The translations under genes were made by a program, and so were the position numbers. Shown in pieces: positions 11,118 through 63,992 of a stretch of 64,000 nucleotides of DNA (within the stretch, counting starts at the first letter, position 1; each line of letters opens with the position of its first letter). Origin of the DNA: an uncultured Candidatus Saccharibacteria bacterium (GTDB taxonomy: Bacteria > Patescibacteriota > Minisyncoccia > Phycocordibacterales > UBA9973); NCBI GenBank assembly GCA_964361705.1, contig CAYIBP010000003.1, forward strand, positions 5,606 through 69,605, written 5' to 3'. The notes under the pieces are model-generated. The model had not been told where the DNA came from. It worked only from the letters and a program-made list of their open reading frames with translations, and made no database searches.

Positions 11118-11262
11118 AAAATATAATTAGTTAAATTAATAATAAAAACATTTCGGAATATTATTTATATAGCCGATAGCATCATTATACACAATCATAT
11201 ATAATATGAAAACAACTTTAGATGTGGATAACCCACAACAGAGCTACTTATGGAATTAATAT

Positions 11263-12784: not shown

Positions 12785-12821
12785 TGTTTACTTTGCATAT
12801 AGCTCGTGATATAAACGCTAT

Positions 12822-17991: not shown

Positions 17992-17994
17992 AAT

Positions 17995-20042: not shown

Positions 20043-20043
20043 T

Positions 20044-45310: not shown

Positions 45311-46060
45311 TCAGCTTGCGACGGGCTCTGCAGCAATCTCTTCGGGCCTGCAAGCAACAATTGCCACGAATAACTTCTTCGTTGGCGAAGAAAGTGGTAA
45401 AATTTCGCTTGTGATTTTGCCCAAATGAGAGCGTAGCAATGTAAAATTGCTAGCTCCAGTATCTGTCCCAAAAAATGCCAGAGGAGACCCATTCAGAGCC
45501 TCCTTAAAATCATTGACATCAAAAGACGCGATATTTCGAGCCGTAGTTGCTCCAGCAAGGCAAAATCCTAAACCGCGCCTGCGAAAAGATTTGGCAATTT
45601 CACCTGCCGTTCTCCCTTCGCCACTGACAGCCACAACCGCAAGTTTTTCGTCGTCCAGAAGAAAAGCCGGATTTTCCCTGAAGAGCTTCAGGGCATTGAG
45701 AGCTTGCGCGTAATCGTCTTTGATTTCGGCCTCAGCCAAAATCGACGCGGCCTGCGTCCCCGTGACGGCTTGAAGGTTGAGAGGTTGCCTAGCGCGCGGA
45801 TCAAAAGCGGTCCTAGTGCCAATAGGAACCGGCGAAAGTTCTTCGTCCGGCAACTTTGTTGACGAAAATTCTTCTTGTTCTTGAGATAACAATCCGTGGA
45901 TAAAAGCCTCGAACTTTGCCTTGAACGCATAAGGACTGCTGATAATCCAATCGTTCAGGGTTTCGAATTCTTCCTCCGAGAGTTCCATCATCTTAAGCCT
46001 CTCAGCGAAGCTTCTAATAATATCTCTTCTGAGATCCCAAATGATCAGTTTTTTTAGCAT
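45311..46060 (-). CDS. Hypothetical protein encoded in a compositionally foreign GC-rich segment
   Basis: 249 aa from the ATG at 46060, which sits 11 nt after a perfect AAGGAG Shine-Dalgarno. The GTG start at 46099 in the ORF track is less likely. Local GC is about 55-60% against about 30% around it. No confident domain assignment. A possible Rossmann-like segment (LAVVAVSGEGRTAGEIAKSF...GFCLAGATTARNIA) is a weak call. Confidence 0.6.
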   Translation of the reverse strand: MLKKLIIWDLRRDIIRSFAERLKMMELSEEEFETLNDWIISSPYAFKAKFEAFIHGLLSQEQEEFSSTKLPDEELSPVPIGTRTAFDPRARQPLNLQAVTGTQAASILAEAEIKDDYAQALNALKLFRENPAFLLDDEKLAVVAVSGEGRTAGEIAKSFRRRGLGFCLAGATTARNIASFDVNDFKEALNGSPLAFFGTDTGASNFTLLRSHLGKITSEILPLSSPTKKLFVAIVACRPEEIAAEPVAS

Positions 46061-46116
46061 GGCTCTTTTCTCCTTAGAGTTTAGCCATTTTACTAACACT
46101 ACGCGGGATTGGGTGC

Positions 46117-46274: not shown

Positions 46275-48805
<2,531 letters not shown>

Positions 48806-48809
48806 TTTA

Positions 48810-49421
48810 TTATTCTATCCAGTTATATAAATACTCTGTAAGTACGATGCTGTGTGTACCTGACTGTTGACTCCAAGACACCCTTGAATACACTTTTACT
48901 CTATCCACAACTGAAGTATCCGCCCATGTAGTACGAATAAATCCAGAATCAACGCCATTGGCAGGATTCGTGCTGTAATTGCCATTATTAAAATACAAAT
49001 GACAATTGCTTGGATTTTCAGCACACTTAAACACAGAGATCGCATTGGTCTGGTTTACTATCGCAATATTGAAACCACAAAGTCCAGTTTCATTTGAGCT
49101 TGGGGGCTGACTTCCACTGCATTTGGTATTTGAAATACCTGTAAAATTAAACCTAAAATCATTCCAATCTGTTGGATTGCTGGAAAATAGCATATAAGCG
49201 TTTCTTTTGTTCAAGAAGTATTCTATACCTTCTTGAGCCAAATATGTGGCAGTAATTTTTTTCTTTGCGTATTCTATATCAGAAAGTCCATTGCCCAACA
49301 CAGACATCAAAGACACAATGGATAAAGAAAATATCGCAACAGCAACAAGCGTTTCAATCAAAGTAAAACCTTGTTTGGTATTTTTGATATTTATATTTTT
49401 TTGCGTAGAAAAATTATTCAT
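48810..49421 (-). CDS. Minor pilin/pseudopilin (GspI/PilV-like)
   Basis: QGFTLIETLVAVAIFSLSIVSLM prepilin N-terminus. Confidence 0.7.
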   Translation of the reverse strand: MNNFSTQKNINIKNTKQGFTLIETLVAVAIFSLSIVSLMSVLGNGLSDIEYAKKKITATYLAQEGIEYFLNKRNAYMLFSSNPTDWNDFRFNFTGISNTKCSGSQPPSSNETGLCGFNIAIVNQTNAISVFKCAENPSNCHLYFNNGNYSTNPANGVDSGFIRTTWADTSVVDRVKVYSRVSWSQQSGTHSIVLTEYLYNWIE

Positions 49422-49427
49422 GGTTTT

Positions 49428-50039
49428 TTATTGTATATCTACTAACCGTTGTGATATGGTGGTTTGCAAGGCAAAAGGCGTCTTAATATTTTTATAAAAA
49501 ATATCTCCCATGAGTCTGATCCTCACCATGGGTTGCGCATCGTCTCCAGCTTCGGCGCCACTGACTATGAATTTAGATCCACTACCTATCAACACATCGC
49601 TTGTATTTAATGTTGCCCACGTAATTCCTCCATCTGTTGACTTCTCTATGTTAGGAGGAACGATCTTGTATATCCATTGATTACTAGTGTCATCATACAC
49701 AAATTCTTCCGGTTCAAATACAATCTGCGCACTTCCATTCAAACAACTCACAGGATCTTCACTTGCGGCTTCTCCAGCAAGACCACAATGATAGAAGAAT
49801 CCTGTTCTTAAGTTCCTAGACATATCTTCCATTATAAAACTCAAACTATCCATAATAGAACGCATATCTTCCGATTTCCTATGAACTAAATTTGCATTTA
49901 GAAGCGAATCCATGCCCACCATAGTAACCACCAGAAAAATAGAAACGGCAATCATGGTTTCTATAATAGTATATCCGCTAGTTTTTAGTTTCTTTCTTTT
50001 TTCTTTCATATTTTGTTTTTTAAAAAATATTTTCATCAC
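49428..50039 (-). CDS. Minor pilin/pseudopilin (GspJ/PilW-like)
   Basis: SGYTIIETMIAVSIFLVVTMV prepilin N-terminus. Confidence 0.7.
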   Translation of the reverse strand: MMKIFFKKQNMKEKRKKLKTSGYTIIETMIAVSIFLVVTMVGMDSLLNANLVHRKSEDMRSIMDSLSFIMEDMSRNLRTGFFYHCGLAGEAASEDPVSCLNGSAQIVFEPEEFVYDDTSNQWIYKIVPPNIEKSTDGGITWATLNTSDVLIGSGSKFIVSGAEAGDDAQPMVRIRLMGDIFYKNIKTPFALQTTISQRLVDIQ

Positions 50040-50052
50040 AATAAAATATAAT

Positions 50053-50709
50053 TTAATCTATATCTATCCTGCCGGAAGAATACACCTTTATCGTGGAGCC
50101 AAGAGCGTTTGGCGATACCACATCTATGGCTACATATTCTATCTTACACGAAGGGCCAAGTGAAGGAGTGGCTTTTATATTGGCAAGCGAACTCGGTCTT
50201 TTAAAAGTAATGGTTATATTGTTTGTCGTAGCCGGACATCCCGTGCCAGAAATTCTAAGAGAAGAAATAAAATTACCTTTTGTGATGTCTATTTTATCAA
50301 GACATTCTTGATTGCAAGTGGAATTACCTATAGTGGGACCAGTATAAGAACCGTTGTTATCAAGATCCACAAAATATACAAATCTTTTGTTGTTATTATT
50401 ATCGAGATTGAAACGCAAACCATAAGAAGGTTTCCATGTTGTCCCTGCGGCCAGGTTTAGCTTGCCAGACATCGAAGATCTCTGTGCTTCTACGATTTGG
50501 AGAGCAATATCATTTGCTAATACCTTGACATCTACCCTGCCCTGAAACCCTCTGTAATCAAAAAGCACCACAGAAGTCATAACAGAAAAAATACTGAGCA
50601 CTATTATGAGTTCGACATAGGTCATGCCTGCTTTGAGGTTTTTAAATTTCCCAAGATGACAGCAACCTTGCCATTTGTTTCTTGTGTTTTTTATAGATGA
50701 TGTTTCCAT
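50053..50709 (-). CDS. Minor pilin/pseudopilin (GspH/FimT-like)
   Basis: KAGMTYVELIIVLSIFSVMTSVVL prepilin signal with E+5. Confidence 0.7.
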   Translation of the reverse strand: METSSIKNTRNKWQGCCHLGKFKNLKAGMTYVELIIVLSIFSVMTSVVLFDYRGFQGRVDVKVLANDIALQIVEAQRSSMSGKLNLAAGTTWKPSYGLRFNLDNNNNKRFVYFVDLDNNGSYTGPTIGNSTCNQECLDKIDITKGNFISSLRISGTGCPATTNNITITFKRPSSLANIKATPSLGPSCKIEYVAIDVVSPNALGSTIKVYSSGRIDID

Positions 50710-50734: not shown

Positions 50735-51535
50735 TTAAAAGCCAGATGGCAAAGCACTAAATATTCCAGACTGAAGCATAAAAGCAATAAAAGCTCCAAG
50801 GGCTAAAAACGGCGCAAACGGTAACTCACTTTTTGCTTTGTATTTTTTAGAAAATAAAAGTAGTAAAATCCCAACGATCGCTCCTGACCAGAATGCCATA
50901 ACTGCGCCAGTGGCTATCTTTGCAAAGCCAATGACCCAACCTATACCGATGGCAAGCTTTGCATCTCCTAACCCCATCCATTCACCGCGTGACAGGAGCC
51001 AGAGTAAAGCAAAAGGCAACGCAAGCACAACTCCAGAAATAAACTCTGTGAGAGGCGGTATGTTCGGATCGAGGTGATATCCAGAAAAGAAAAACAGGCC
51101 CAAGAAAGCAAAAACCCCAAAGAACAAAACCAAGGAGTCGGGGATGATCTTGTGTCTTAAATCATACACCGCCATTACAAGAAGCAAAGAAAACATCGTC
51201 ACATAATATGCGTAAGATACAGAAAAATCCAAGGTACTCAAATAAAAAGTATCCTGAAACTTTAGAAACACTAAAGCAAACATGCCTCCAGTGACAAATT
51301 CAACTAAAGGATATTGCCAAGAAATTCGTGTCTTGCAATGTCTGCACCTCCCTTTCAAAAACAGAAAACTAAGCACGGGAATAAGCTCACGCCATCCGAG
51401 AATATGCCTGCAAGAAAGACAACCGCTCCGCCCGCCAAAAGTGCAATTAGTGTTGAACCTTAGTATCACCACATTCAAAAAGCTTCCAATAATCAATCCA
51501 AGGCCGAAAAAAATAATCGTGAGTAATAAAGTCAT
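50735..51535 (-). CDS. pilD: Prepilin peptidase (A24 family)
   Basis: N-terminal tetra-Cys (CLSCRH...CRHCKTRISWQYPLVE) and a polytopic membrane core; 266 aa. Confidence 0.8.
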   Translation of the reverse strand: MTLLLTIIFFGLGLIIGSFLNVVILRFNTNCTFGGRSGCLSCRHILGWRELIPVLSFLFLKGRCRHCKTRISWQYPLVEFVTGGMFALVFLKFQDTFYLSTLDFSVSYAYYVTMFSLLLVMAVYDLRHKIIPDSLVLFFGVFAFLGLFFFSGYHLDPNIPPLTEFISGVVLALPFALLWLLSRGEWMGLGDAKLAIGIGWVIGFAKIATGAVMAFWSGAIVGILLLLFSKKYKAKSELPFAPFLALGAFIAFMLQSGIFSALPSGF

Positions 51536-51592: not shown

Positions 51593-54500
51593 CTACTGGT
51601 TAGTATTTACAGCATTTTTCAGCACCTCTTTGAATTTCAAGCCTTTTACATCCAAACTAGCATTTGCATCTACGGTAAACAATTTGCTTTTAGAAAACTT
51701 TGACATCACTGTATTGGAATCGGTAACATCGTTGCCCACTTGCCTATCTACATCCATCACCACATCTTCTGTCGGATCTATTTTCAAAGTATAGGCTAAA
51801 CCATCCGGCACGGAAATGAATTTCGTACTACCTATCTCTGTGTATCTGGTCTGTGGTATCTCTTGCTTCACTTTTCCGGTCGTAAAGTCTACACCAGTAT
51901 ATCTGCCTTTTGCATCCACTATACCCACCCTACCCTCAGTAAAGAGATGATAATGTATGCGTGGAGCAAATACGGTCGTAGGATAATGTTTGACCACCAC
52001 ATCTTCTGAATCAGAAAACGGAACACCTGTGATTTTTGATTTTATAAAATCACGCAGGTTAGAAACCTCCATTATGTCTTTGTGATTTCTCTCTACAGCA
52101 AACCAAGTATCATACTTGATCAGATCAACCCACCATTTTTCCACATTTAGATTTGAGTCTGACATCCACAACGCAGAGGAAGTAACTACAGTATTGTCCC
52201 CTTCGGAAATATATTTTGGTTTGTAAGTTACATCTTCTTGCCCGCTTTTTACAAATGTTTTGTACTCTATACCTGACACAGTCTCTTTACCCCAGCCCGC
52301 CAACTGCACGACTTTTGTACTTGATGAAGGTTGCCAAGAATCCAATACATTATGTACGGACTCCGCCTTTGGAAAAAGTATCGAATTGCCTTTTGCGGGC
52401 TTTTTCACTTCATCAAATAGAGGCTCTGCCCTGCCGTCGCCACCGAGCACATAATCTTTTAATTCTGAAAAATTATTCACTTGCAAACCATATTTTGAAA
52501 TCTGTGGATTAAACAATGCATGATTCTGAAAAGTCACGATCTGATCCGGAGCTATCACTGGATCATTAATGCTAAAATAACTCACCGAAGGCAAGAGATT
52601 GTAAGCTGTGGGCATATTTTTTGCCAGCCATCTATTTCTCTTTGCCGTCATCACGAAACCCACTGGACCCATAGACTCTCCATGCAACATATTGATCAGA
52701 GCTTGCGGAGTACCTATCTGAGGTACACCCACAAAGATTACCTGATCAATCTTGTCATATAGAGGATCGTTTGTTTCCTTTAGCTTTTGTATCAAAGCTT
52801 TGATAACCAAGCCGCCATTTGAATGACCTATGAGAGTGACCCTGCCAGTCCTAGATGTAGCCTGCAACTCTTTTAATTTTTTCAAAATAAAGGACTCGGA
52901 GAAGGTTTGATTATTGTTATAAAAAAGTTTTCCATTCACATTCAAGTCACCTTTTACGACAATATCCTCCAATGCCACGCGCCAGTCGTAAGGTATAAAA
53001 TGATAATCATTGATTGTGCCTTCTTTTTTCCAATCCTTCAAATCAAAAAGAAATGAATTGTAAATATTAAAACCCGAAATCTCATCCACGATACCTGTTT
53101 CCCTTTCATATCCATCGCTGATTTTCTGCGTATCATTCTTTGTGTAAACATTTGAATTTTTGCCATTTGTATTCAAAGTTAGCTTGGATTGCAAAGCGTC
53201 ATCAGCCGAAACCCATAGTTCTTTTTCACCATTAGATTCTTGCAAATACAACCGAGAACCCATTATTCCCGGGAAAAACATCACATTTGAAAAACAATTT
53301 ATTTTGCATATTTCCTTAGTAAGCCAAGGAGTAAAATTTACATTATCAGAAACCTTGTCACCTTTACCATTTGGATTCTTGGTCAGATGATAAGGTCCAG
53401 ATGAATCTCCCCAATAGTTATCTTTGGCATTTACCAGTACTTTTGAATAAACACCAGTTTGATGACCAAATATATCACTATTCGTTATATTCAGAGACCC
53501 ACGCTCTACATAAATACCATAAGATTGATTATTTTTTATCTGTGAAGAACTAATATTTAAAGAACCATAGTACTGTCTAATACCATACATTTCATTATCT
53601 TCGATAGAACTATTAACGAGAGACACATTGCCACCACTGTTATATATAACACCATTATTTGATCCACTATAGGAGTAATACCAACGACCTCCGTACTTCA
53701 TAGCAACATGAGAAAGCTGACTTACACTTTTATCTCCAAAAAATAAATGATTCCAGTCACCTGCGCTAGGAGCGATATCACTTTGATCATTATTTGTATC
53801 GCCACCTACAGTATCATCATTAATAGATGTAAAATATACTTTCTGCTCATTGGTACCATTAATTATCAGGTTACCTTTAACACTCACACTCATGTTTCTT
53901 TTAAACTTTACAATAACTCCAGGATCAATATTCAGAGTTACACCCAAAGGAACAGAAAAAACATAATCGGATGAATTGTAATTCGTTGTACCAGAACCAT
54001 TAATAATATAGGGCATATTATCCTTGGTCCATGTTTGATTTTGAGATAATTTACCAGATATATAAATACCATCCGACTTAGTGGAAGTGTTACCGGAATG
54101 TAAGAAATTACGAACACCATTTAAGTTTATATATATTCCTCCATCAAAAACATTATTTGTTAGTGTAATTAAATCTTCAATTTTATTCTGTCCACCTCCA
54201 CCGTAAAAACCCCAATAATCTCGAAGAACTGTTCCTGAAATATTCGTGGTGCCAGCATAGGTCTTCACCCCATAAAGCACATTATTCTCAACCAAACTGT
54301 CTGTCACAGAAATATTACCACCGTGATTAGAAATAGATCCAACAGTCTCAGCATAATAGCTATAGTAATAACTACCTCCATATCTGATAACAGTATTATT
54401 AAATACACCCGTACTCCCTTGATGAAAAAGAATATTTGCCCAATCTCCTACTTGTGGTGCGGTATCCAAACCGTCATTGTTTGTGTCACCACCTATAGTA

Positions 54501-54850
54501 TCATCATTATAAGAAGTAAAATATACCTTCTGTTCTGAAGTGCCATTTACTCTTAAATTACCATTTATGGAAATACCATATTTACCAAAAATCTTAACAA
54601 TTACACCGGGCTCAATCGTCAAAGTCACGCCAGACGAGACAAGCGGAACATGAGTAAAACCTCGCAATATATCATAGCTATAAATAACATAAGGGCTGTT
54701 TTCTAGCGTCCATGTCGTATCAGTATCGATTGGCGCAGAGATAGTTGTGCTGGCATCTGCATAATTTATATTCCAGAGAAAAAGAAAACTGAAAAATAAA
54801 ACCATCAACGCAAGTTTAATCTCGTTTTTTAAAAAAGTCATAATAGTCAA
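51593..54850 (-). CDS. Large secreted protein: two tandem right-handed beta-helix modules followed by a C-terminal lipase-like alpha/beta-hydrolase domain
   Basis: 1085 aa with a signal peptide. An approximately 270-aa unit is duplicated (TW..N.PY.I...GVTL.I.PGVIVK...NGT.EQKVYFTS.NDDT.GGDTNND...GDW). Pectate-lyase-like repeats follow (NVSLVNSSIEDNEMYGI, NISSSQIKNNQSYGIYVERGSLNITNSDI). The C-terminus has FPGIMGSRLY and the lipase nucleophile elbow VTLIGHSNGGLV. Confidence 0.7.
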   Translation of the reverse strand: MTIMTFLKNEIKLALMVLFFSFLFLWNINYADASTTISAPIDTDTTWTLENSPYVIYSYDILRGFTHVPLVSSGVTLTIEPGVIVKIFGKYGISINGNLRVNGTSEQKVYFTSYNDDTIGGDTNNDGLDTAPQVGDWANILFHQGSTGVFNNTVIRYGGSYYYSYYAETVGSISNHGGNISVTDSLVENNVLYGVKTYAGTTNISGTVLRDYWGFYGGGGQNKIEDLITLTNNVFDGGIYINLNGVRNFLHSGNTSTKSDGIYISGKLSQNQTWTKDNMPYIINGSGTTNYNSSDYVFSVPLGVTLNIDPGVIVKFKRNMSVSVKGNLIINGTNEQKVYFTSINDDTVGGDTNNDQSDIAPSAGDWNHLFFGDKSVSQLSHVAMKYGGRWYYSYSGSNNGVIYNSGGNVSLVNSSIEDNEMYGIRQYYGSLNISSSQIKNNQSYGIYVERGSLNITNSDIFGHQTGVYSKVLVNAKDNYWGDSSGPYHLTKNPNGKGDKVSDNVNFTPWLTKEICKINCFSNVMFFPGIMGSRLYLQESNGEKELWVSADDALQSKLTLNTNGKNSNVYTKNDTQKISDGYERETGIVDEISGFNIYNSFLFDLKDWKKEGTINDYHFIPYDWRVALEDIVVKGDLNVNGKLFYNNNQTFSESFILKKLKELQATSRTGRVTLIGHSNGGLVIKALIQKLKETNDPLYDKIDQVIFVGVPQIGTPQALINMLHGESMGPVGFVMTAKRNRWLAKNMPTAYNLLPSVSYFSINDPVIAPDQIVTFQNHALFNPQISKYGLQVNNFSELKDYVLGGDGRAEPLFDEVKKPAKGNSILFPKAESVHNVLDSWQPSSSTKVVQLAGWGKETVSGIEYKTFVKSGQEDVTYKPKYISEGDNTVVTSSALWMSDSNLNVEKWWVDLIKYDTWFAVERNHKDIMEVSNLRDFIKSKITGVPFSDSEDVVVKHYPTTVFAPRIHYHLFTEGRVGIVDAKGRYTGVDFTTGKVKQEIPQTRYTEIGSTKFISVPDGLAYTLKIDPTEDVVMDVDRQVGNDVTDSNTVMSKFSKSKLFTVDANASLDVKGLKFKEVLKNAVNTNQ

Positions 54851-54895
54851 TATTATACAATAATTAGAGAAAAGTCAAATTTTATATTTGGTCTT

Positions 54896-55378
54896 CTATA
54901 ACGAGTTCACAGCAAGACTACAATCCATTCCAGAAACCAGACTTGCAAAAGCTATCTTTTTCGAATTTCCGTGATTATCAACACACCAAGCATTTGAAGA
55001 ATCGGACTTTAATGGTATTGCTAAAACATAATTATTACCATTTGCTTGACATTTTGCATCCAATCCGCCATTTGCGTCTATCGCAGCCTCAATTTGTTCT
55101 TGAACAGTAGCATCATTAAAGACATTTGTTGCTGGGGTAACAGCTATTATAGTTCCACAATTAGTTATAAAAGACCGATTACCATAACTGCCCGATAAAT
55201 TACCATAAATAATTTCTGCTTGTGTTTTTAAATTCGCTAAATTAGATTGAATACTGGCATCACTTCCACTTTTCTTTGCGCTATTTAGCGACCCTAAAAC
55301 CACAGACGCCAATATACCAATAATGGCGACAACTACCAAGAGTTCAATCAATGTAAAACCTTTCTTTAGATTCTTCAT
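54896..55378 (-). CDS. Type IV major pilin paralog
   Basis: True start MKNLKKGFTLIELLVVVAIIGILASVVLGSL at 55378; the 53-aa N-terminal extension in the ORF track is probably spurious. Confidence 0.75.
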   Translation of the reverse strand: MKNLKKGFTLIELLVVVAIIGILASVVLGSLNSAKKSGSDASIQSNLANLKTQAEIIYGNLSGSYGNRSFITNCGTIIAVTPATNVFNDATVQEQIEAAIDANGGLDAKCQANGNNYVLAIPLKSDSSNAWCVDNHGNSKKIAFASLVSGMDCSLAVNSL

Positions 55379-55496
55379 AAAAATTTTAAGTAAAAAATAC
55401 TTTCTAATTAATGAAGAAATTATACCAAATACAAAAAACAAAAACCACCCTATAGAGATGGTTTTTGTAAGAAACACTGTAAACAAAGAGTAGTAA

Positions 55497-55976
55497 CTAT
55501 GAAGCTGGACAAGCAGCTGATGAGCCAGCAAGAACACTTACTCTACCTGCAGAAGTCCCAAGACTATCCACGCACCAATATAAATTACCATTATCTGCGG
55601 CTTTTAGAGGAACTGATATAGCCCAAGCTGATGATGTTGCATGACAGTTTGAAGTTGTTGCTGTTTGTGCCGTTGCGTACGTAAGAACTATACCACCACT
55701 AACACCACTAGCCGAATGCGCTGCTGTAAGAGCTTTTGAAATCGTTCCATCCTGTACACCATTACAAACAGTATCATAACTATTTGGATTTGCTCCATCA
55801 TAGACTATCTCTGCTTGAGCGCGAATATTTGCAAGATTTGCCTTTATCGCGGCATTATTACCTTTACTTCTCGCTGTATTCAAAGACCCCAAGACTACAG
55901 ACGCCAAGATACCGATGATGGCGACGACGACCAAGAGTTCAATTAATGTAAAACCTTTTTTAAGATTATTCTTCAT
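55497..55976 (-). CDS. Type IV major pilin paralog
   Basis: MKNNLKKGFTLIELLVVVAIIGILASVVLGSLN has an N-terminus nearly identical to the neighbouring pilin; 159 aa. Confidence 0.8.
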   Translation of the reverse strand: MKNNLKKGFTLIELLVVVAIIGILASVVLGSLNTARSKGNNAAIKANLANIRAQAEIVYDGANPNSYDTVCNGVQDGTISKALTAAHSASGVSGGIVLTYATAQTATTSNCHATSSAWAISVPLKAADNGNLYWCVDSLGTSAGRVSVLAGSSAACPAS

Positions 55977-56145: not shown

Positions 56146-57243
56146 TTATTCACCCACAAAGGTAAAATGAGCTCCCTCGGGCGACCATTTGCCGGCCGCG
56201 TCCGCATTGTCCCAAAGTCTTATTACCCATTCATACTCAACGCCAGATTTCAAAGCAGGACCACTATATTCTACTGGTATTATCAATCTTTGTCCGCTAA
56301 AGGTCTCCATGATAGGATAGCCCGGTACTTCTTTTACACCAGAGTCCCATTGGCTTTTATCTCCACCCTTGATTATCAAACGATACTTTTTGACCATATC
56401 TCCTGTATCAGGATCGTTGAAAATTACAGAGAATTCAGGAGTTGGATCAGTCACTTCTTTTGGATTTATTTTATCTTCCACTAGAGGCTCTGTAGGAAAA
56501 GTCGGGGCGTTATTATTCACATTATCAAGGACAGCAGAGACAGTTTTTGAACTCATATTGCCGGCGTTGTCCTTTGCTTCAATATGCAAATAGAAAACTC
56601 CATTACCTTCCGATACGGTCGTATAGCAATATTTTCTGCTAAAAGCCCCCGTTGGCTTACCTATCGGATTTTGATCAACGATAAATCTATAAGTAGAATC
56701 ATCATCTGGGGAAGCACACCAATTCCAATATTTTGTCTTCTTGGCTACTGTATCGTCCACTAAGTCTGGATCACTTAAATCTGGCGGAGTCGTATCTGCC
56801 ACCGAATTTACTAATAAACCGTTCACAAGAGTAAAGGCAAAACTGCTGTGTGTTTGCTTGCAATCATTTCCTCCATAAGCTTTAAAGACCACAGCGTAAG
56901 TGCCGTTGGCTCCTGGAGCTTTCATCTGAAAAGATTCAGTGCCGGTGGTGCCTGCCTTGTGGTTTGCGGTGTCTACACACACCCAAGGAGCTTTACCTAT
57001 TTTATACATAGTAGAAGCCCAGTTACCAAGGTTCTTTGACTCTACGGTAACGCTCGCATTCACCATTTCACTCTTCTTTACAGATGCGCTGCTGACACCA
57101 TTAAGTGTAGCACTTATAATATCTCTCGCTGCAGAAACTTGCGAAAAAGGCACAAAAAAAGCGCTAACTAGGAGCGCGATCATGGCAACATTACCAAGTA
57201 CATATTTAATGAAAACCCTATAATATAAAAATCGTTTTTTCAT
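56146..57243 (-). CDS. Secreted Ig/FN3-like repeat protein in the pilus locus
   Basis: 365 aa; signal peptide; beta-rich, Thr/Asp/Pro-rich repeats; no enzymatic motif. Confidence 0.5.
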   Translation of the reverse strand: MKKRFLYYRVFIKYVLGNVAMIALLVSAFFVPFSQVSAARDIISATLNGVSSASVKKSEMVNASVTVESKNLGNWASTMYKIGKAPWVCVDTANHKAGTTGTESFQMKAPGANGTYAVVFKAYGGNDCKQTHSSFAFTLVNGLLVNSVADTTPPDLSDPDLVDDTVAKKTKYWNWCASPDDDSTYRFIVDQNPIGKPTGAFSRKYCYTTVSEGNGVFYLHIEAKDNAGNMSSKTVSAVLDNVNNNAPTFPTEPLVEDKINPKEVTDPTPEFSVIFNDPDTGDMVKKYRLIIKGGDKSQWDSGVKEVPGYPIMETFSGQRLIIPVEYSGPALKSGVEYEWVIRLWDNADAAGKWSPEGAHFTFVGE

Positions 57244-57330: not shown

Positions 57331-58539
57331 TTATTGTATTCCGCCTGTCAAATTATATATAGGAATGAGTACAGACACCAAAAGTACACCGACTCCCAGA
57401 CCTAAGACCACTATCATGACCGGCTCTATGAGTCCAACCAGAGTATCTATGGCATCATCAACTTCTCTTTTATAGAAATCAGTAAGGGTTTTCAATATTT
57501 GACCAAGCGAACCTGTCTCCTCACCTATCTTTATCATTTGAGTCATTATGCTAGGAACATAATCCTTGTGTCTTTCAAACGTTGCAGAAAAAGCAAGGCC
57601 GGACTTCACGCCGTCTTGAACATCTTGCATTATTTTTTTGTATATCTGACTGTCCACTACCTCGGATGTGATCTCTATAGCTCGGACAATAGGCACACCA
57701 GAAGTTAACATTGTATCCATATTGTCGGCTATGCGAGAAAGGTAGAATTTTTTGTAAAGATTCCCGACTGCAGGCGTAGAAAGACGCATCTTGTCCAGAT
57801 ATATCCTACCCTTTTCAGTAACAGAAAGTCTCCAAAGCCATATGCCCAAAAGTATAAAGAAAATAATTACTAGGAAACCATAATCAACAAAAAAATTCGA
57901 AAGAGCAATGACAAATTTGGTGTACAAAGGCGGTTCTTGTCCTGAATCAAGTATTATAGCTGAAAGCTTTGGTATCACCACCACAAACATCAGAGCCATC
58001 ACCACAAAAAAAGTGAAAATAACAAAGACGGGATAAATCAAAGCATTCTTGGTCTTTGAAGTCAGAGCATATTGGCGATTTAAATAATTTGCCAGATGAT
58101 CAAAAGTTTCATTGAGTTTACCTGTTTCTTCTCCGACACGAACCATATTCACATAAAAATTTGAAAAGATATCAGAATGTTTTGCTAAAGCACCAGAAAT
58201 AGAAAATCCGGCTTGCAGATCATCTGCTATCTCTGTCAATTTCTTGCTTAAAGTTTTATTTTCAGTGTTCGTGGCAAGTATGGTAAAAGCCTTTAAAGCA
58301 GAAACCTGCGCTTCAAAGAGAGTTGATATCTGACGAGAAAGAATCACTACTTCTTTTGGAGAAACTCTCTTCTCAAGAGAAAACGATAGAAAAGATTTTC
58401 TCTTTCCTTCCTCAACAATAGAAACGATTATCAAACCGCGCCTCTGCAAACCATTGATGGCCATATCGCGACTCTGCGCGTCTATCTCGCCTTCTTTGTT
58501 TAGTCCCCTTTCATCTACCGCTTTGTATTTAAATAGCAT
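57331..58539 (-). CDS. pilC: Type IV pilus / T2SS platform protein (GspF/PilC family)
   Basis: 402 aa with two T2SS_F repeats and 3 TM segments. Confidence 0.85.
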   Translation of the reverse strand: MLFKYKAVDERGLNKEGEIDAQSRDMAINGLQRRGLIIVSIVEEGKRKSFLSFSLEKRVSPKEVVILSRQISTLFEAQVSALKAFTILATNTENKTLSKKLTEIADDLQAGFSISGALAKHSDIFSNFYVNMVRVGEETGKLNETFDHLANYLNRQYALTSKTKNALIYPVFVIFTFFVVMALMFVVVIPKLSAIILDSGQEPPLYTKFVIALSNFFVDYGFLVIIFFILLGIWLWRLSVTEKGRIYLDKMRLSTPAVGNLYKKFYLSRIADNMDTMLTSGVPIVRAIEITSEVVDSQIYKKIMQDVQDGVKSGLAFSATFERHKDYVPSIMTQMIKIGEETGSLGQILKTLTDFYKREVDDAIDTLVGLIEPVMIVVLGLGVGVLLVSVLIPIYNLTGGIQ

Positions 58540-58545
58540 GGAAAA

Positions 58546-59604
58546 TTAAATCATTCGCTCAAGACCTTTAGGATTAAATGAATACAAATAAGCATTCTCT
58601 ATTGTTATTTCTCCGGCACGTACAAGCTCGATCAAAGAGTGGTTCAAATCTATCATGCCGGATTCTGAACCAGTCTCTATAACTACATTGATCTCTTGTG
58701 TTCTTTTTTCGCGAATCAAGTTTGCAACAGCGTTGTTGTTCAAAAGCAACTCGCAAGCAGGCACGAGGCCTCCAGCGATTCTGGGAATAAGTCTTTGTGA
58801 TAATATTCCGAGTAAACTTCCCGCGAGCTGTATGCGTATTTGGTCTTGTTGTTCTCCCGGGAATGAATCAATGATGCGGTCTATAGTTTGCGCGGCATTG
58901 TTGGTATGCAGAGTAGAAAGCACGAGGTGTCCTGTCTCTGCCGCAGTCACAGCAGTAGAAATGGTTTCGGTATTTCTCATCTCGCCTACCATTATTATAT
59001 TCACATCTTCGCGAAAGACGGATTTGAGCGCGGTGTGAAAATCTTTGGTATCAATGCCGACTTCACGCTGATTGATGATGGATTTATTTGGAGTAAACAT
59101 ATATTCGATAGGATCTTCGATGGTCACTATATGGCGAGCTTGTTCACTATTGATCAGGTTTACCATAGCCGAAAGCGTGGTGGATTTGCCTTGACCTACC
59201 GGCCCCACTACCAAAAAGAAACCTTGTTTCTTACGAGCAATATCTGCAAGGACAGCAGGCAAATGTAGATCAGTCAAAGTCTTTACTTTTGGCACCAAGC
59301 GAAATGCCACGCTGATCAGATTTTTCTGAAAAAAAGCATTACCCCTTAAACGCATTTCCCCACGAAAGTCGTAGGAAAAATCAACTTCTTTATCTTTAAA
59401 AAATTTTTCAAGTTTTTTCTCATCTAAAACCTCACTCAAAATACCAACCACATCTTCTTTGGACATTTCGGGATGTTTAGCAAGAAAAATAAGCTCGCCC
59501 GCTACGCGTATAGCCGGTACTTTCAAAGCACCTATGTGCAAATCCGAAGCGCCTTCGCGCATGAGCGTCAAAATAAGTTCTTCAAATTCTTTTTTATAAT
59601 CCAT
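58546..59604 (-). CDS. pilT: PilT-like retraction ATPase
   Basis: 352 aa; Walker A GPVGQGKSTT; PilT-size AAA+ secretion ATPase without the N-terminal GSPII_E_N domain. Confidence 0.75.
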   Translation of the reverse strand: MDYKKEFEELILTLMREGASDLHIGALKVPAIRVAGELIFLAKHPEMSKEDVVGILSEVLDEKKLEKFFKDKEVDFSYDFRGEMRLRGNAFFQKNLISVAFRLVPKVKTLTDLHLPAVLADIARKKQGFFLVVGPVGQGKSTTLSAMVNLINSEQARHIVTIEDPIEYMFTPNKSIINQREVGIDTKDFHTALKSVFREDVNIIMVGEMRNTETISTAVTAAETGHLVLSTLHTNNAAQTIDRIIDSFPGEQQDQIRIQLAGSLLGILSQRLIPRIAGGLVPACELLLNNNAVANLIREKRTQEINVVIETGSESGMIDLNHSLIELVRAGEITIENAYLYSFNPKGLERMI

Positions 59605-59675
59605 ATTACAAGTATATTACAAAAGAACGACAAGAAAAAGAGGGCACTCTGAAATTTGTGGACAACCGCGTGAAG

Positions 59676-61427
59676 TTAGCCTTCGGCAGTGAAATTAAAG
59701 ACTTCTTTGTATGGAATGATACCATTTATAGCTTTGAGCATCGCGTCTTCTTTCATAGAAAGCATACCGTCTTTTCTGGCGACTTTATATATTTCGTCGT
59801 TTACTGGATTTTTAAGAATGACAGACTGCATTTCTCTATTAATTTTGAACATTTCAAATATCGCTATACGACCACGAGTACCAGAAGGACAGTCTGGCGA
59901 TGGCACAGTATCGTACATTTCGTTTTTTATTTCTATAGTCTTTTTGAATTCCTCTGGTAAATCTTTCAAACTGCCCTCTATTTGAAGCTTGATGCTTTCA
60001 TCCATAGGTACTTTCTTTCTTGAAGATTCACAAGTAAGTTTTGAGAGTCTTTGAGCGACAGATAATATGAGTGTAGGCGCTATAAGATAAGGATCGACTC
60101 CCATATCCACAAGTCTTGGCACAGCTCCTATCGCATCATTTGTGTGCAAAGTAGAAAGCACAAGGTGTCCAGTAAGCGCAGCTTGAATGGCAAGTTGCGC
60201 AGTTTCTTTATCGCGAATCTCACCCACCATAATAACATCAGGATCTTGACGAAGAATAGATCGAAGACCTGAAGCAAAAGTGTATCCTATCTCGGGCATC
60301 ATCTGAGACTGGTTTATATCCGGCATGTGATATTCCACAGGATCTTCCAAAGAGACGATATTCGTACCTTCCTTGTCGAGTTCATTCATCATAGAGTAAA
60401 GTGTGGTGGATTTACCTGAACCCGTAGGACCTGTGATTAAAATAAGTCCATATGGCTTTTTCAAACTTTCGCGCAGAAGTTCCAGATTTCTTTCTGAAAG
60501 TCCAAGCTGATCAAGTGGCTTGACCCCTTTCTCTGAATCAAGAATACGCATCACGACTTTTTCGCCATAATACGCCGGCATAGTAGAAACGCGAAAATCA
60601 ATCTTTCTACTATTTAATGTAGTAGTGAAAGATCCGTCCTGTGGTTTTCTTTTTTCGTCCAAGCGAAGCTTTGCAAGTATTTTGATACGAGCTACGACTC
60701 CATTGTAAACACTAAGTGGTAAAACCGTAGTTGTGCCAAGCGTACCATCTATACGGACGCGAACTTTTACTTTTTCTCCCGTATTTTCTATGTGTATATC
60801 TGAAGCATTGCTTTCTATGGCGTTACGCAAAATCACCGCGACGATCTTGATCACAGGAGCGTCTTCAACTATTTTTGTATTTTCTTTTCCTTCTGCGTTT
60901 TTTAATTCAGCGTTCAAACTACTGAATTCATTGGCTGTTTTTATATCGTCTGATTTTCCTTCTTTGATTTCACTCAATGCATCTTCAACTTGCACAGAAA
61001 GACCTTTATAACTCTCCATCACCTCTTTGTAATCACTGTTTGATATCAAAAAAAGCTTAAAGGATATACCTGTCTTTGCCGCGATGAACTGTAACGCGTC
61101 GAGGGCTTCTGTGTTCTCTCCGTCTGTAATACCCACCTCCAGCACGCCGTCTTTGAAGTCTATCGGCACAAATCTATAATGCGATACGGCTTCTTCGGGT
61201 ATATATTTCAAAGCGTCAAAAAGCGTGGTCTCTTTTATGTCTACTTTTTTCGTCGGCATCTTGAGATAAGAGCCTTTCGCTTCTAAGATTTTATCTTCTG
61301 GAACGCCAAAAGACATCAACGCCAGATCTATGTCACCTGCGTATTTTTCTTTTGCTAAATCTTTTATCTCATCTATCTGGTCATGATTGATGACATCTTT
61401 TTTTGCTAATTCTTCTAAAAAACTCAT
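59676..61427 (-). CDS. pilB: PilB/GspE assembly ATPase
   Basis: 583 aa; N-terminal GSPII_E_N-like region; Walker A GPTGSGKSTT; Asp and His boxes. Confidence 0.85.
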   Translation of the reverse strand: MSFLEELAKKDVINHDQIDEIKDLAKEKYAGDIDLALMSFGVPEDKILEAKGSYLKMPTKKVDIKETTLFDALKYIPEEAVSHYRFVPIDFKDGVLEVGITDGENTEALDALQFIAAKTGISFKLFLISNSDYKEVMESYKGLSVQVEDALSEIKEGKSDDIKTANEFSSLNAELKNAEGKENTKIVEDAPVIKIVAVILRNAIESNASDIHIENTGEKVKVRVRIDGTLGTTTVLPLSVYNGVVARIKILAKLRLDEKRKPQDGSFTTTLNSRKIDFRVSTMPAYYGEKVVMRILDSEKGVKPLDQLGLSERNLELLRESLKKPYGLILITGPTGSGKSTTLYSMMNELDKEGTNIVSLEDPVEYHMPDINQSQMMPEIGYTFASGLRSILRQDPDVIMVGEIRDKETAQLAIQAALTGHLVLSTLHTNDAIGAVPRLVDMGVDPYLIAPTLILSVAQRLSKLTCESSRKKVPMDESIKLQIEGSLKDLPEEFKKTIEIKNEMYDTVPSPDCPSGTRGRIAIFEMFKINREMQSVILKNPVNDEIYKVARKDGMLSMKEDAMLKAINGIIPYKEVFNFTAEG

Positions 61428-61433
61428 AGGTAA

Positions 61434-61829
61434 TTATGGTCTAGCCCCAGTCCTTCCGCCACTTGTCGATCCGGGAGTGGTATTCGTGGTAGAAATAGGA
61501 GCAAAAGGATTTGGTCTTCCTTCATCACCGGTAGGAACCAAAAGAATACTTGAATCATTCAAACCGGCAAAAACTTTGTCTGAAAAAATAGAATCATCTA
61601 ATTTGATGTTTTTTACGCTAAGCAATACCGAAAGGAAATCCTGCGTTACTCTATTCATCTCACTAGTTGTGGGTGAAACTGGAGGGATGTTAGGATCATA
61701 AGAAAATTCCCCTGACGTAGATGACAAATTCGCCTCTTCCCCTTTACTCCCTATAAAAAAAATATAAGCTAAGACCACCAAAGCTCCTATCACGACAAAG
61801 AGTATTATGTTTTTGACAGTTGTGTTCAT
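61434..61829 (-). CDS. Small bitopic membrane protein (PilP-like position)
   Basis: 131 aa; single N-terminal TM; Ser/Thr/Pro-rich. Confidence 0.45.
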   Translation of the reverse strand: MNTTVKNIILFVVIGALVVLAYIFFIGSKGEEANLSSTSGEFSYDPNIPPVSPTTSEMNRVTQDFLSVLLSVKNIKLDDSIFSDKVFAGLNDSSILLVPTGDEGRPNPFAPISTTNTTPGSTSGGRTGARP

Positions 61830-61830
61830 T

Positions 61831-62421
61831 TTAGTTTTTTAGCCAATAAGTCTTAATTTTAAAATCATAAGTGTAAACTTCGGACAAAGAGGATCCTGCA
61901 CCCAAGTTTGTATTTGAAGAAAATTGTATTGAAGATATATCTACGATACGTAGGTTACTTTCTAGGTCTTTTATAAAATTTATAAAATTACTATACGAGC
62001 CAGAGGTTGAAAACTCAAGATTCCAAGTATCATAATCTTTAACCATGATTTCTTCCTCTGCTGGCACAGATTCTTCGCCCTCTGTCAGAACAACATTCTC
62101 TCCCGCATCGTATTTGACATCTTTGAGCGCCATGCCATATGGAGAAGCTATTTTTTCTATCTCAAGTATGAGGCGTATATTGTCTACATTATCAGGCAAA
62201 AGCTTCTGCAGTTTAGATAAATTGTCTGGATTAAAAGAATTATATTTTTGAGTGAGCTTGTCGCGTTCAGCTTCAAATGCTTTCGCGTTATCAAGCGCCT
62301 TATTGTAATCTGAAACCTGACTTCTCTTCAAAGAAACATCTTGGTAAAGAGGACTTGTAAATAGGAAAAAGGCTGTGAGCGCTATTCCTATTAATATACC
62401 TGGTAAAATAAATTTAAACAT
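61831..62421 (-). CDS. pilO: PilO-like pilus assembly protein
   Basis: 196 aa; N-terminal TM then coiled coil; PilN-PilO pairing position. Confidence 0.55.
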   Translation of the reverse strand: MFKFILPGILIGIALTAFFLFTSPLYQDVSLKRSQVSDYNKALDNAKAFEAERDKLTQKYNSFNPDNLSKLQKLLPDNVDNIRLILEIEKIASPYGMALKDVKYDAGENVVLTEGEESVPAEEEIMVKDYDTWNLEFSTSGSYSNFINFIKDLESNLRIVDISSIQFSSNTNLGAGSSLSEVYTYDFKIKTYWLKN

Positions 62422-62436
62422 AAATATCTGCTAGAA

Positions 62437-63135
62437 TCACAAGTTTAATAAATCCTCTTCGCTTAAAACATCTTCTTCTGCTTCCAAATCGTTTTCAAGA
62501 TTGATATCGGCAAAATCATCTTGGGCGCCAGTGTTAGCTTCGGTAACTTCTATTAATTTTTTGTAATTTACAAAATTTGCATCTACGCCGAATTCCAGTT
62601 CAAAAAGTACGTTACCCTTGTCATCCAGCGATAGGTTGGAAAAAATCGGGTCAATAAAATTTTTATTTTTAGCAAAAAGATCTGACTGGAGAGCAACAGA
62701 CCTGTAACCCACAGCCACACCATCAAGCTTGATCATCACCAAGCCGTTCTTGCTGTTGGTTAAATCATAAGTGAACTTGGTATAGCCAATAGTCTGCATT
62801 GTAACAGTCTGAAGCTCTTTGAAAATCGGAGAAATAGCTATGTGTTTGGCAAGAATTTCATCGGAAGCTCTAAGTCTCTTGTCTAGAACCTGTAGCTGGA
62901 CTATTTTTGATGGTTCAAAACGGTTCTTGGAAAGATTCAAATCGCTTTCCATCTGGATTATGTTCTTTGCTAAAACTCCGTTGTAAAAATACAGAGCTCC
63001 TGTCGCAAGAATAATAGTAAAGAAAATGAAGACAGAAAAAACTGTCAGGTAGCTTGCCCGACTTCCACTTACAACCCTAGCTTCAATCATCGGTTTTTTG
63101 GGAATGAAAGATGTTTGAAAATTTTGACCGTCCAT
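62437..63135 (-). CDS. pilN: PilN-like pilus assembly protein
   Basis: 232 aa; N-terminal cytoplasmic segment then TM; downstream of pilM. Confidence 0.55.
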   Translation of the reverse strand: MDGQNFQTSFIPKKPMIEARVVSGSRASYLTVFSVFIFFTIILATGALYFYNGVLAKNIIQMESDLNLSKNRFEPSKIVQLQVLDKRLRASDEILAKHIAISPIFKELQTVTMQTIGYTKFTYDLTNSKNGLVMIKLDGVAVGYRSVALQSDLFAKNKNFIDPIFSNLSLDDKGNVLFELEFGVDANFVNYKKLIEVTEANTGAQDDFADINLENDLEAEEDVLSEEDLLNL

Positions 63136-63167
63136 TTTGTTTATAACCCTGTATCTATTATCTCAAC

Positions 63168-63992
63168 TTATTGTAATTTACGCAAGGCAAGACCGATGGA
63201 AACAGCAAATTCTGGACCAATACTTTCCAATACTTTGTTTAAAAATTCAGGTGCGTTGGTTTTAGAGAACGGTTGACCGATCTCAAGCTCTGCTCGGAAG
63301 TTATTAATTGCTATTTCCTTAAAACCTTTCATAAGTGAACCTCCGCCAGTTAGAATAACCTTGGTGACGGTTCTGTCGTACTTTTTCTCATATCCCAAAA
63401 GAACACTATTTGCCTCTGAAAAGATATAATCTGTGTGAACTTTTATAATATCCGCGATGTTTTGTTTTAAGGGATTTTCAAAAAGACCATATTCTTTCTT
63501 CATTTCTTCAGCTTGAGGAAAAGGAATTCCTAAAGACTGCGCTATAGAATTAGATATCTCTGCGCCACCTCGATTTATAGTGTGATGACCTTTTACCATG
63601 CCGAATTCAACAAGCGTAAGTTTGGTACTTGAAGCGCCTAAATCCATAACGAGCACCAAAGAAAGCTCATGTTCAAAATTTGACCTTATATACGAAAAAA
63701 CTTCTATCTCAAAAAAACTCGCCTCGAGGCCACATTCGGATACTATGGATCTATATCTTGAAATAGCTTCATTTTGTATTGCAACAGCTAGAACTTCTTT
63801 TTTCTCTTGAGATGCGTCTGGTAAAACAGTCGCGTTTGCTTCTTCAAAGGACATTTCTCTTTTGGGAAGCATAAAATAATCTAGCGTGACTTCAGTGATA
63901 GGAAGAGGTATGTATTTACGCGCTTCTATTGACACTACAGAAGCTATGTCGCCTTCTTTTACTTGGGGAGGCAACGCAAGCGTAAATATCAA
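63168..63992 (-). CDS. pilM: PilM actin-like ATPase, C-terminal part (gene continues past the window end)
   Basis: ASKHA-fold motifs (VMDLGASSTKLTLVE, ILTGGGSLMKGF), C-terminus AVSIGLALRKLQ, and the N-terminus lies off the window. Confidence 0.75.
   Translation of the reverse strand: MIFTLALPPQVKEGDIASVVSIEARKYIPLPITEVTLDYFMLPKREMSFEEANATVLPDASQEKKEVLAVAIQNEAISRYRSIVSECGLEASFFEIEVFSYIRSNFEHELSLVLVMDLGASSTKLTLVEFGMVKGHHTINRGGAEISNSIAQSLGIPFPQAEEMKKEYGLFENPLKQNIADIIKVHTDYIFSEANSVLLGYEKKYDRTVTKVILTGGGSLMKGFKEIAINNFRAELEIGQPFSKTNAPEFLNKVLESIGPEFAVSIGLALRKLQ

Follow-up and report, generated by a model that had tools for sequence, protein, structure and literature searches.

A predicted LCAT/LPLA2-type lipase with a duplicated beta-helix, encoded inside a type IV pilus operon of a Patescibacteria genome

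Patescibacteria account for a large share of bacterial diversity. Two kinds of described systems are relevant to the gene considered here: the lipases LPLA2 (the lysosomal phospholipase A2 of animals) and LCAT, which make lysolipids and can transfer acyl chains, and the proteins TcpF and CofJ, soluble products of type IVb pilus (T4bP) operons that are exported via the pilus system and so provide a precedent for operon-encoded cargo. Candidate Phyla Radiation (CPR) bacteria do not synthesize lipids and are enriched in lysolipids, and phospholipase A activity has been suggested as their lipid supply (PMC7242380). Secreted phospholipases, each based on a single gene, have also been proposed for CPR predators and epibionts (PMC8080830, PMC9530719). 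According to a 2024 perspective, the mechanisms of lipid uptake and breakdown are still unidentified (PMC11665869). Here, we describe a gene for a large, putatively secreted lipase that lies within a type IV pilus (T4P) operon of an ultrasmall groundwater bacterium, on a 64,000-nucleotide stretch of contig CAYIBP010000003.1 (assembly GCA_964361705.1, positions 5,606 to 69,605), hereafter the window. A partial protein 100% identical to its product is on record as “Patescibacteria group bacterium” from Hainich groundwater, and the closest named relatives of the PilD protein of this operon belong to Nomurabacteria/Paceibacterota. The architecture, fold, conservation of catalytic residues, family size and taxonomic range, gene contexts, and sisterhood of the pilus-embedded copies were all computed here.

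The open reading frame (ORF) reported in the preliminary description proved to be real when read from TTG to the stop on the minus strand. The gene and the catalytic part of its product comprise the following features:

51593..54850, minus strand: the whole ORF, 1085 codons from TTG 54850, with the stop codon at 51593-51595
54839-54841, minus strand: probable true start codon ATG, giving 1082 aa (codon 4 of the listed ORF)
51986..53305, minus strand: predicted LCAT/LPLA2-type alpha/beta-hydrolase domain, residues 516-955, with the motifs FxPG (525-528), YDWR (621-624), and HSxGG (676-680)
52820..52822, minus strand: codon of Ser677, the predicted nucleophile, which aligns with LPLA2 Ser165
52196..52198, minus strand: codon of Asp885 (EGDNTV), which aligns with the DGDGTV motif of LPLA2 containing Asp327
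52082..52084, minus strand: codon of His923, the predicted catalytic histidine, conserved in 44/45 homologs; the Asp-to-His spacing is 38 vs. 32 in LPLA2
51596..51985, minus strand: C-terminal beta-sandwich (residues ~963-1062) with a predicted disordered tail; a generic Ig-like fold assigned to no Pfam family

The Pfam LCAT model (PF02450) matched residues 618-787 with 42.6 bits against a gathering cutoff of 21 (E = 5.9e-11), and a GHSNGG elbow was found at residues 675-680, which bears out the earlier assignment of a lipase/LCAT-like alpha/beta hydrolase. An AlphaFold2 model built from 45 sequences had a mean predicted local distance difference test (pLDDT) score of 86.1, with values of 86-97 around Ser677, Asp885, and His923. 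A Foldseek search with this model retrieved LPLA2 (4x90_A; E = 8.5e-10, TM-score 0.70), Tle4 (E = 5.7e-7), and LCAT (E ~1e-6). LPLA2 aligned over many more residues than generic lipases did; therefore, the match extends beyond the hydrolase core to the family-specific subdomains, and the model contains cap and membrane-binding subdomains of the LPLA2 type around that core. Two of these relatives were also recovered when the family profile was compared with the PDB sequences (Tle4, E = 3e-7; LPLA2, E = 1e-4). A single-sequence phmmer search with residues 515-1085 found no match among the PDB sequences, and only the family profile succeeded.

The residues expected of a serine lipase were also in place. 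In the profile alignment, HSxGG fell on the AHSMG motif of LPLA2, and the DGDGTV position was shared, both with an index offset of +1 relative to Ser165 and Asp327, which are published residues of the LPLA2 triad (PMC6027918). Among the 45 homologs, F525, P527, and G528, the Y621-D-W-R624 motif, and H676-S677-x-G-G were invariant; S677 was conserved in 45/45 sequences and D885 in 44/45. Thus, the Ser-Asp-His triad, on the presence of which the preliminary description had made its reading depend, appears to be reconstituted at the level of sequence and fold; its members occupy equivalent sequence positions, the histidine being assigned from conservation and spacing only. Sequence and model together place the predicted catalytic domain in the LPLA2/LCAT type. 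The activity would most likely be that of a phospholipase A, possibly with an additional acyltransferase activity.

Of the candidates scored in a search with the full-length protein, 911 were relatives at E ≤ 1e-3, the majority of them carrying PF02450, with or without PF13229; nearly all full-length homologs were PF02450-positive. Their annotations read only “right-handed parallel beta-helix repeat-containing protein,” “hypothetical,” or generic carboxylesterase; PF28492 was listed for many of them. No NCBIfam model matched the target protein, and no paralog of it was found within the window. A profile of the catalytic domain recovered 1,821 representatives (50%-identity clusters) at E ≤ 1e-30 and 4,151 at 1e-10. 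The lipase domain starts anywhere between residue 1 and residue ~743 across the family, so variable N-terminal modules are the rule. We retrieved 56 loci encoding the lipase domain, of which 48 came from Patescibacteria lineages (Nomura-, Zambryski-, Kaiser-, Moran-, Taylor-, and Falkowbacteria, Paceibacterota, and others), seven were from unclassified “bacterium” entries, and one was a 2.9-kb contig in a cyanobacterial bin. This is a very large LCAT-type family that is confined mainly to Patescibacteria.

The usual context of the family is a two-gene cassette: in 31 of 51 loci (61%; iterated hidden Markov model, HMM), the gene directly downstream on the same strand encoded a small protein (~130 aa) with four transmembrane (4-TM) segments. 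These proteins are ~126-139 aa long, with four TM segments predicted in each, share the conserved motif THG(M/L)DFxPI, and belong to no Pfam family. The 4-TM protein could be a membrane dock for the lipase, an immunity protein, or a part of the uptake of its products. Other recurrent neighbors were often a Y1 transposase-like gene and, nearby, rplJ-rplL, ftsK, or recA. The Y1_Tnp genes (IS200/IS605-type or REP-associated tyrosine transposase-like) adjoin LCAT-family genes in several unrelated loci, and an ORF family homologous to this neighbor occurred in 8/56 loci; a Y1_Tnp gene is a possible vehicle for moving the lipase cassette. The positions of both kinds of neighbors are as follows:

L003:4788-5207, L083:14376-14756, L084:9520-9939, L085:14071-14466, L091:7218-7637, and L092:7387-7797: genes for the 4-TM protein
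L083:9089-9715, L085:9229-9972, L092:2710-3378, and L003:5796-6587: Y1_Tnp genes

A literature search combining LCAT and Parcubacteria found no papers, and searches for Patescibacteria with lipase, phospholipase, or pili returned generic proposals only; no published description of the beta-helix–LCAT family, its size, its 4-TM partner, or its pilus-operon copy was found. The enzyme kind, an LCAT/LPLA2-like serine lipase, is already known, whereas the multidomain architecture is undescribed, the large family is uncharacterized, and the pilus-operon context is rare.

The N-terminal half of the window protein precedes the lipase domain and consists of three parts:

54752..54850, minus strand: predicted Sec-type signal peptide, residues 1-33, with an A-D-A cleavage motif; not a prepilin (class III) leader
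54041..54748, minus strand: beta-helix repeat 1, residues 35-270, with the loop motif DDTIGGDTNNDG
53306..54040, minus strand: beta-helix repeat 2 (residues 271-470), the cap DNYWGDSSGP...FTPWL, and a CxxxC junction (C515, C519)

The N-terminus reads MTIMTFLKNEIKLALMVLFFSFLFLWNINYADA up to the presumed cleavage point, followed by ST, and combines a basic n-region, a hydrophobic helix (residues 6-24 in the model), and an A-x-A site, in line with the signal peptide noticed earlier. Neither an LPXTG motif nor a C-terminal TM segment was found in the protein. Residues 44-240 and 271-470 were 43% identical over 207 aa (E = 3e-47), with several beta-helix coils in each unit besides an N-terminal cap and a DDxxGGDTNxDG loop. 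The tandem duplication claimed in the preliminary description was thereby confirmed, but the period is ~227 aa and not ~270 aa as stated there. The pectate-lyase-like coils said to follow the repeats turned out to be the coils of repeat 2 itself; they are succeeded by a conserved NYWGxxxGP...PW cap (residues ~475-510) and the CxxxC junction, which contains the only cysteines of the protein, and there is no third block. The Pfam Beta_helix model (PF13229) matched residues 396-468, inside the second repeat (30.3 bits vs. a cutoff of 25.9), and the predicted fold likewise assigned this region to the beta-helix/pectin-lyase-like superfamily. Each repeat carries an acidic loop, (N/S)xxDDTxGGDTNNDxxDxAP, at residues 110-130 and 337-357 (54461-54523 and 53780-53842, minus strand). 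These loops resemble calcium-binding loops of the DxDxDG type and are well ordered in the model (pLDDT ~87-96). The N-terminal module was also found in giant proteins of Chloroflexota, Planctomycetota, Ignavibacteria, and others, and in other proteins it is fused to M23 or M10 peptidases.

The gene belongs to a co-directional T4P cluster with the order pilM/N/O-like genes, pilB, pilT, pilC, a gene for an Ig-like protein, two pilin genes, the lipase gene, pilD, four minor-pilin-like genes, and ligA. Its placement between the pilins and pilD, as first reported, was thus verified. The surrounding features are listed below:

57331..63992, minus strand: core T4P genes pilC, pilT, pilB, a small ORF, and pilO/pilN/pilM-like genes
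59676-61427, 58546-59604, and 57331-58539, minus strand: pilB, pilT, and pilC, respectively
56146..57243, minus strand: gene between pilC and the major pilin gene that encodes a secreted Ig-like protein (Ig_Rha78A_N, E = 7.6e-11)
55497..55976, minus strand: probable major pilin gene
54896..55378, minus strand: second pilin gene, 45 bp upstream of the lipase gene; its real start is MKNLKKGFTLIELL at 55378
54852..54878, minus strand: promoter-like element TTGACT-N15-TATAAT, ending 10 nt before ATG 54841
50735..51535, minus strand: pilD prepilin peptidase gene (A24_N_bact, E = 1.2e-29, plus Peptidase_A24), 57 bp downstream of the lipase gene
48293..50709, minus strand: four minor-pilin-like genes (the last PilX-like), then ligA

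The pilus linkage was explored by BLAST with all Pil proteins of the window and by a prepilin-motif scan across the 56 loci; as a positive control, the scan recovered 4/6 of the pilin-like genes of the window. A T4P gene was found within 10 kb in only four loci, pilB being 5-7 kb away in two of them and a lone pilin gene being present in the other two, and none of the seven closest homologs examined lay inside a pilus operon. Pilus linkage as a trait of the family was therefore rejected. The co-occurrence with pilin genes, a check proposed in the preliminary description, is limited to the window type of arrangement, which is common only to L086, from the same population, and to L087, the locus of the closest relative. 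Three proteins of high identity but partial coverage (P0005, P0009, and P0015) were considered as further pilus-embedded copies and discarded, since their loci were not embedded.

Comparison of the T4P operons demonstrated that four relatives share the conserved backbone pilMNO-pilB-pilT-pilC-pilin(s)-pilD-four minor pilins-ligA. Three of these, with PilD 65-66% identical, have a pilin gene that abuts pilD and contain neither the lipase gene nor the Ig-like gene. In L087 (PilD 70% identical), both genes occupy the same positions as in the window, the Ig-like ortholog (L087:3265-4356) being 62% identical to its counterpart; the two genes co-occur only in these two pilus-embedded lineages. Only there, too, is the lipase gene separated from the four minor-pilin-like genes by pilD alone. 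The lipase and C-terminal domains of the L087 protein were 51-56% identical to those of the target, whereas its N-terminal ~550 residues were unrelated to the beta-helix, and the first 549 of them gave no Pfam match. The window and L087 lipases formed sister branches on the neighbor-joining tree (bootstrap 86/100), and the pair was nested among non-embedded homologs with a beta-helix of the target type. Both embedded copies lack the gene for the 4-TM partner, for which no match was obtained in the window by tblastn and the iterated HMM, even at E ≤ 10.

Placement in the pilus operon does not characterize the family but reflects a rare, lineage-specific relocation. One such move with a later N-terminal swap in L087 is the simplest history: in the common ancestor with the L087 lineage, the gene would have moved once from the lipase and 4-TM cassette to its position between the pilins and pilD, with loss of the 4-TM partner and with a promoter of its own, either retained or newly gained. 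The GC content of the gene (0.368) equals that of the window (0.369) and the genome mean, so a recent foreign import was ruled out. A single-domain response regulator gene was located between pilB and pilT in the three other operons (L088:5116-5514, L089:5465-5866, and L090:5192-5587) and was missing from the window and L087, the operons with the lipase and Ig-like genes.

Every base of the promoter-like element upstream of the lipase gene was conserved in L087, although the intergenic DNA around it had diverged. Taken by itself, a consensus promoter/terminator scan of such AT-rich DNA carried no information (52 found vs. 36 expected), and the element gains weight from its conservation across the two lineages. 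It suggests that the lipase gene has its own, near-leaderless promoter, and co-transcription with the pilins would thus not be required. The translation start is probably ATG 54841 instead of TTG 54850, because the TTG falls within the conserved -10-like element and is missing at the equivalent place in L087. Neither of the gaps flanking the gene (45 and 57 bp) contains a hairpin. A hairpin with a 13-bp stem and a T-run was found at 55438-55468 (minus strand) between the first and the second pilin gene, close behind the former; it resembles the attenuators or terminators common after major pilin genes. The listed GTG start of the second pilin gene (55537) overlaps this hairpin, and its start is probably ATG 55378.

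Several other features of the window were recorded. A 131-aa ORF (61434-61829, minus strand) between pilO and pilB has an N-terminal TM segment and no Pfam match, and stands where all related T4P operons have a conserved unnamed gene. Another ORF without a Pfam match (45311-46099, minus strand; 262 aa) lies between ligA and a gene for an archaeal-type phosphoenolpyruvate carboxylase (43705-45207, plus strand; PEPcase_2, E = 3.7e-141). The latter is syntenic in L087 and is a notable anaplerotic enzyme for so reduced a genome. A low-GC island (11222-20997; 0.28-0.31 vs. ~0.37) carries a surface-glycosylation cluster with genes for a PMT_2 mannosyltransferase-like protein, a Laminin_G-like protein, LPG_synthase_TM, two GT1, an NAD-epimerase, and GT2, together with a 725-aa protein without a Pfam match (13894-16071). 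The rest of the window is housekeeping in character (dnaG, rpoB/C, gyrB, pheT, and SMC).

Taken together, we favor, with a probability of about 0.6, an LCAT/LPLA2-type serine lipid esterase that is exported by Sec and acts outside the cell on the membranes of hosts or neighbors, its gene having been relocated once into the pilus locus. After export through Sec, the enzyme would cleave host or neighbor phospholipids or transfer acyl chains from them; lysolipids and fatty acids would be released for uptake, and the host envelope would be weakened. The double beta-helix may serve as a rigid stalk, as a glycan-binding targeting module, or as both, giving the enzyme reach. A phospholipid substrate, extracellular action, a physiological role in harvesting lipids or attacking hosts, and any regulatory link with the pilus are what we infer beyond the computed features; plausibly, the placement in the pilus locus aligns the expression or location of the lipase with host contact. 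Several points weigh against this interpretation. A free secreted lipase would be diluted in groundwater, so some retention, by a partner, the pilus, or a host glycan, would be needed. The fit of the N-terminus to a Sec signal peptide was judged by eye. The substrate cannot be read from the fold alone, and related alpha/beta hydrolases include polyhydroxybutyrate (PHB) depolymerase and cell-wall esterases, although these were far poorer matches than LPLA2. Finally, the position conserved in two lineages, together with the loss of the partner, may amount to more than co-location.

The last point leads to the alternative that survives best, a pilus-borne effector, which we nevertheless consider unlikely. 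After Sec export, the protein would dock on the minor-pilin tip complex or be handled by the T4P machinery, and the pilus would present the beta-helix and lipase to the host surface, as with PilY1 (type IVa pilus, T4aP) or TcpF/CofJ (T4bP). The gene directly adjoins pilD near four minor-pilin genes, and this arrangement was kept in L087 despite identities of only 70% for PilD and 51-56% for the lipase. The embedded copies do without the 4-TM partner that 61% of the other members have, as if another dock had replaced it, and a second secreted accessory gene, for the Ig-like protein, is found in exactly these two operons. PilY1-type tip proteins use Sec leaders too. The same type of operon also accepts large modules: L088, from a related Hainich groundwater Paceibacterium, encodes a 1478-aa PilX-like minor pilin (L088:11499-15935), the N-terminus of which is 45% identical to the fourth minor pilin of the window (E = 7e-33) and which bears a C-terminal extension of ~1,300 aa with Flg_new_2 and Laminin_G_3 domains. 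The conserved T4P operon is a hotspot for large host-interaction modules. However, this one clear pilus mounting among the relatives works by fusion to a PilX-like pilin, whereas a plain Sec leader is seen in the target and in its L087 sister. Neither a pilin domain nor a prepilin leader (scan for the class III motif, G followed by FTLxE) nor a Neisseria_PilC/PilY1 domain (Pfam, E ≤ 0.01) was found in the target; the family is otherwise not linked to pili, and the gene has its own conserved promoter. Moreover, the N-terminal half was replaced in L087, and therefore any docking surface would have to sit in the lipase or C-terminal domains. The interpretation given in the preliminary description, a pilus-associated adhesin or effector that attacks lipid or membrane, is supported in part.

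A more specific form of this idea, which we rate as rather improbable, takes the T4P of this Paceibacteria sub-lineage as a delivery or positioning device for a lipid-harvesting enzyme. The lipase, having lost its 4-TM partner, would dock on the minor-pilin tip, possibly via the co-acquired Ig-like protein; pilus retraction would bring it onto the host envelope, and the epibiont would incorporate the released lysolipids. If true, this would couple host attachment and lipid acquisition in one operon.

An antibacterial toxin that kills or lyses neighbors in the manner of Tle4/TplE, a type VI secretion system (T6SS) phospholipase, with the 4-TM protein as its immunity partner, appears to us improbable. 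The homology of the lipase domains and the recurrent downstream gene agree with it; however, no T6SS genes (VgrG, Hcp, PAAR) turned up in the scanned ORFs of the window, and the protein carries a Sec leader and no T6SS-associated domain. The gene supposed to confer immunity is missing for the window and L087 copies; with a true toxin this would be dangerous unless another locus provided the immunity, and known Tli proteins are periplasmic or lipoproteins and not 4-TM proteins. This explanation overlaps with the favored one of an extracellular lipid esterase and differs mainly in emphasis, killing vs. harvest. Equally improbable is a glycan- or polyester-directed esterase, the beta-helix of which would bind or cleave host polysaccharide while the hydrolase deacylates a glycan, lipoglycan, or polyester and not a phospholipid: the latitude that the fold leaves for the substrate agrees with it, but the closest structural match was LPLA2.

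Under the favored reading as an extracellular lipid esterase, the family is a concrete candidate for the missing step of lipid acquisition in Patescibacteria and could be the way in which these lipid-dependent bacteria take lipids from their hosts; its interest rests less on the pilus idea. The window copy, which together with the Ig-like protein underwent a single relocation into a host-contact locus and lost its normal membrane partner, is the best available place to ask whether pilus-mediated attachment and lipid harvest are coupled. Should the protein be an ordinary secreted esterase unconnected with the pilus, what remains is a new annotation for a large “hypothetical” family.

Comparison with known systems places the target closest to LPLA2 (PLA2G15)/LCAT (PF02450), with which it shares only 19% identity. 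The target is bacterial, from Patescibacteria, and its domain lies between an N-terminal double beta-helix and a C-terminal Ig-like domain in a protein of ~1,080 aa; HSNGG takes the place of HSMG/HSLG at the elbow, and the lid-loop disulfide of LPLA2/LCAT is not evident, C515 and C519 being the only cysteines. Homology of the lipase domain extends to Tle4/TplE of Pseudomonas aeruginosa (PA1510, PDB 4r1d). Unlike the target, which is predicted to be Sec-exported and has no T6SS genes in its window, Tle4 is delivered by the T6SS, neutralized by periplasmic Tli4, and encoded next to its cognate immunity gene; downstream of the target lies pilD, the 4-TM neighbor of the family being missing here.

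Among pilus-associated proteins, the T4aP tip adhesins PilY1/PilC are, like the target, large (~1,000-1,200 aa) non-pilins with a Sec leader encoded beside minor-pilin genes. However, they have a C-terminal beta-propeller domain, in place of which the target has a small beta-sandwich; no homology connects the two, and the family of the target is normally encoded away from pili. TcpF of the Vibrio cholerae toxin-coregulated pilus (TCP) and CofJ of CFA/III from enterotoxigenic Escherichia coli (ETEC) are also non-pilins with Sec leaders encoded in a T4P operon. They have no sequence or fold relation to the target and belong to the T4b pili of diderms. The modular PilX-like pilin of L088 represents another large host-interaction module in the same Paceibacteria T4P backbone, but it starts with a pilin N-terminus, whereas the target has no pilin part. 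Vamp_34_196 of Vampirococcus and HHAS10 of Gracilibacteria, single genes named by annotation, are likened to the family by proposed role only, and the proposed logic is the same, namely that the host membrane is breached by a secreted phospholipase that provides lipids to a bacterium unable to make its own (PMC8080830, PMC9530719).

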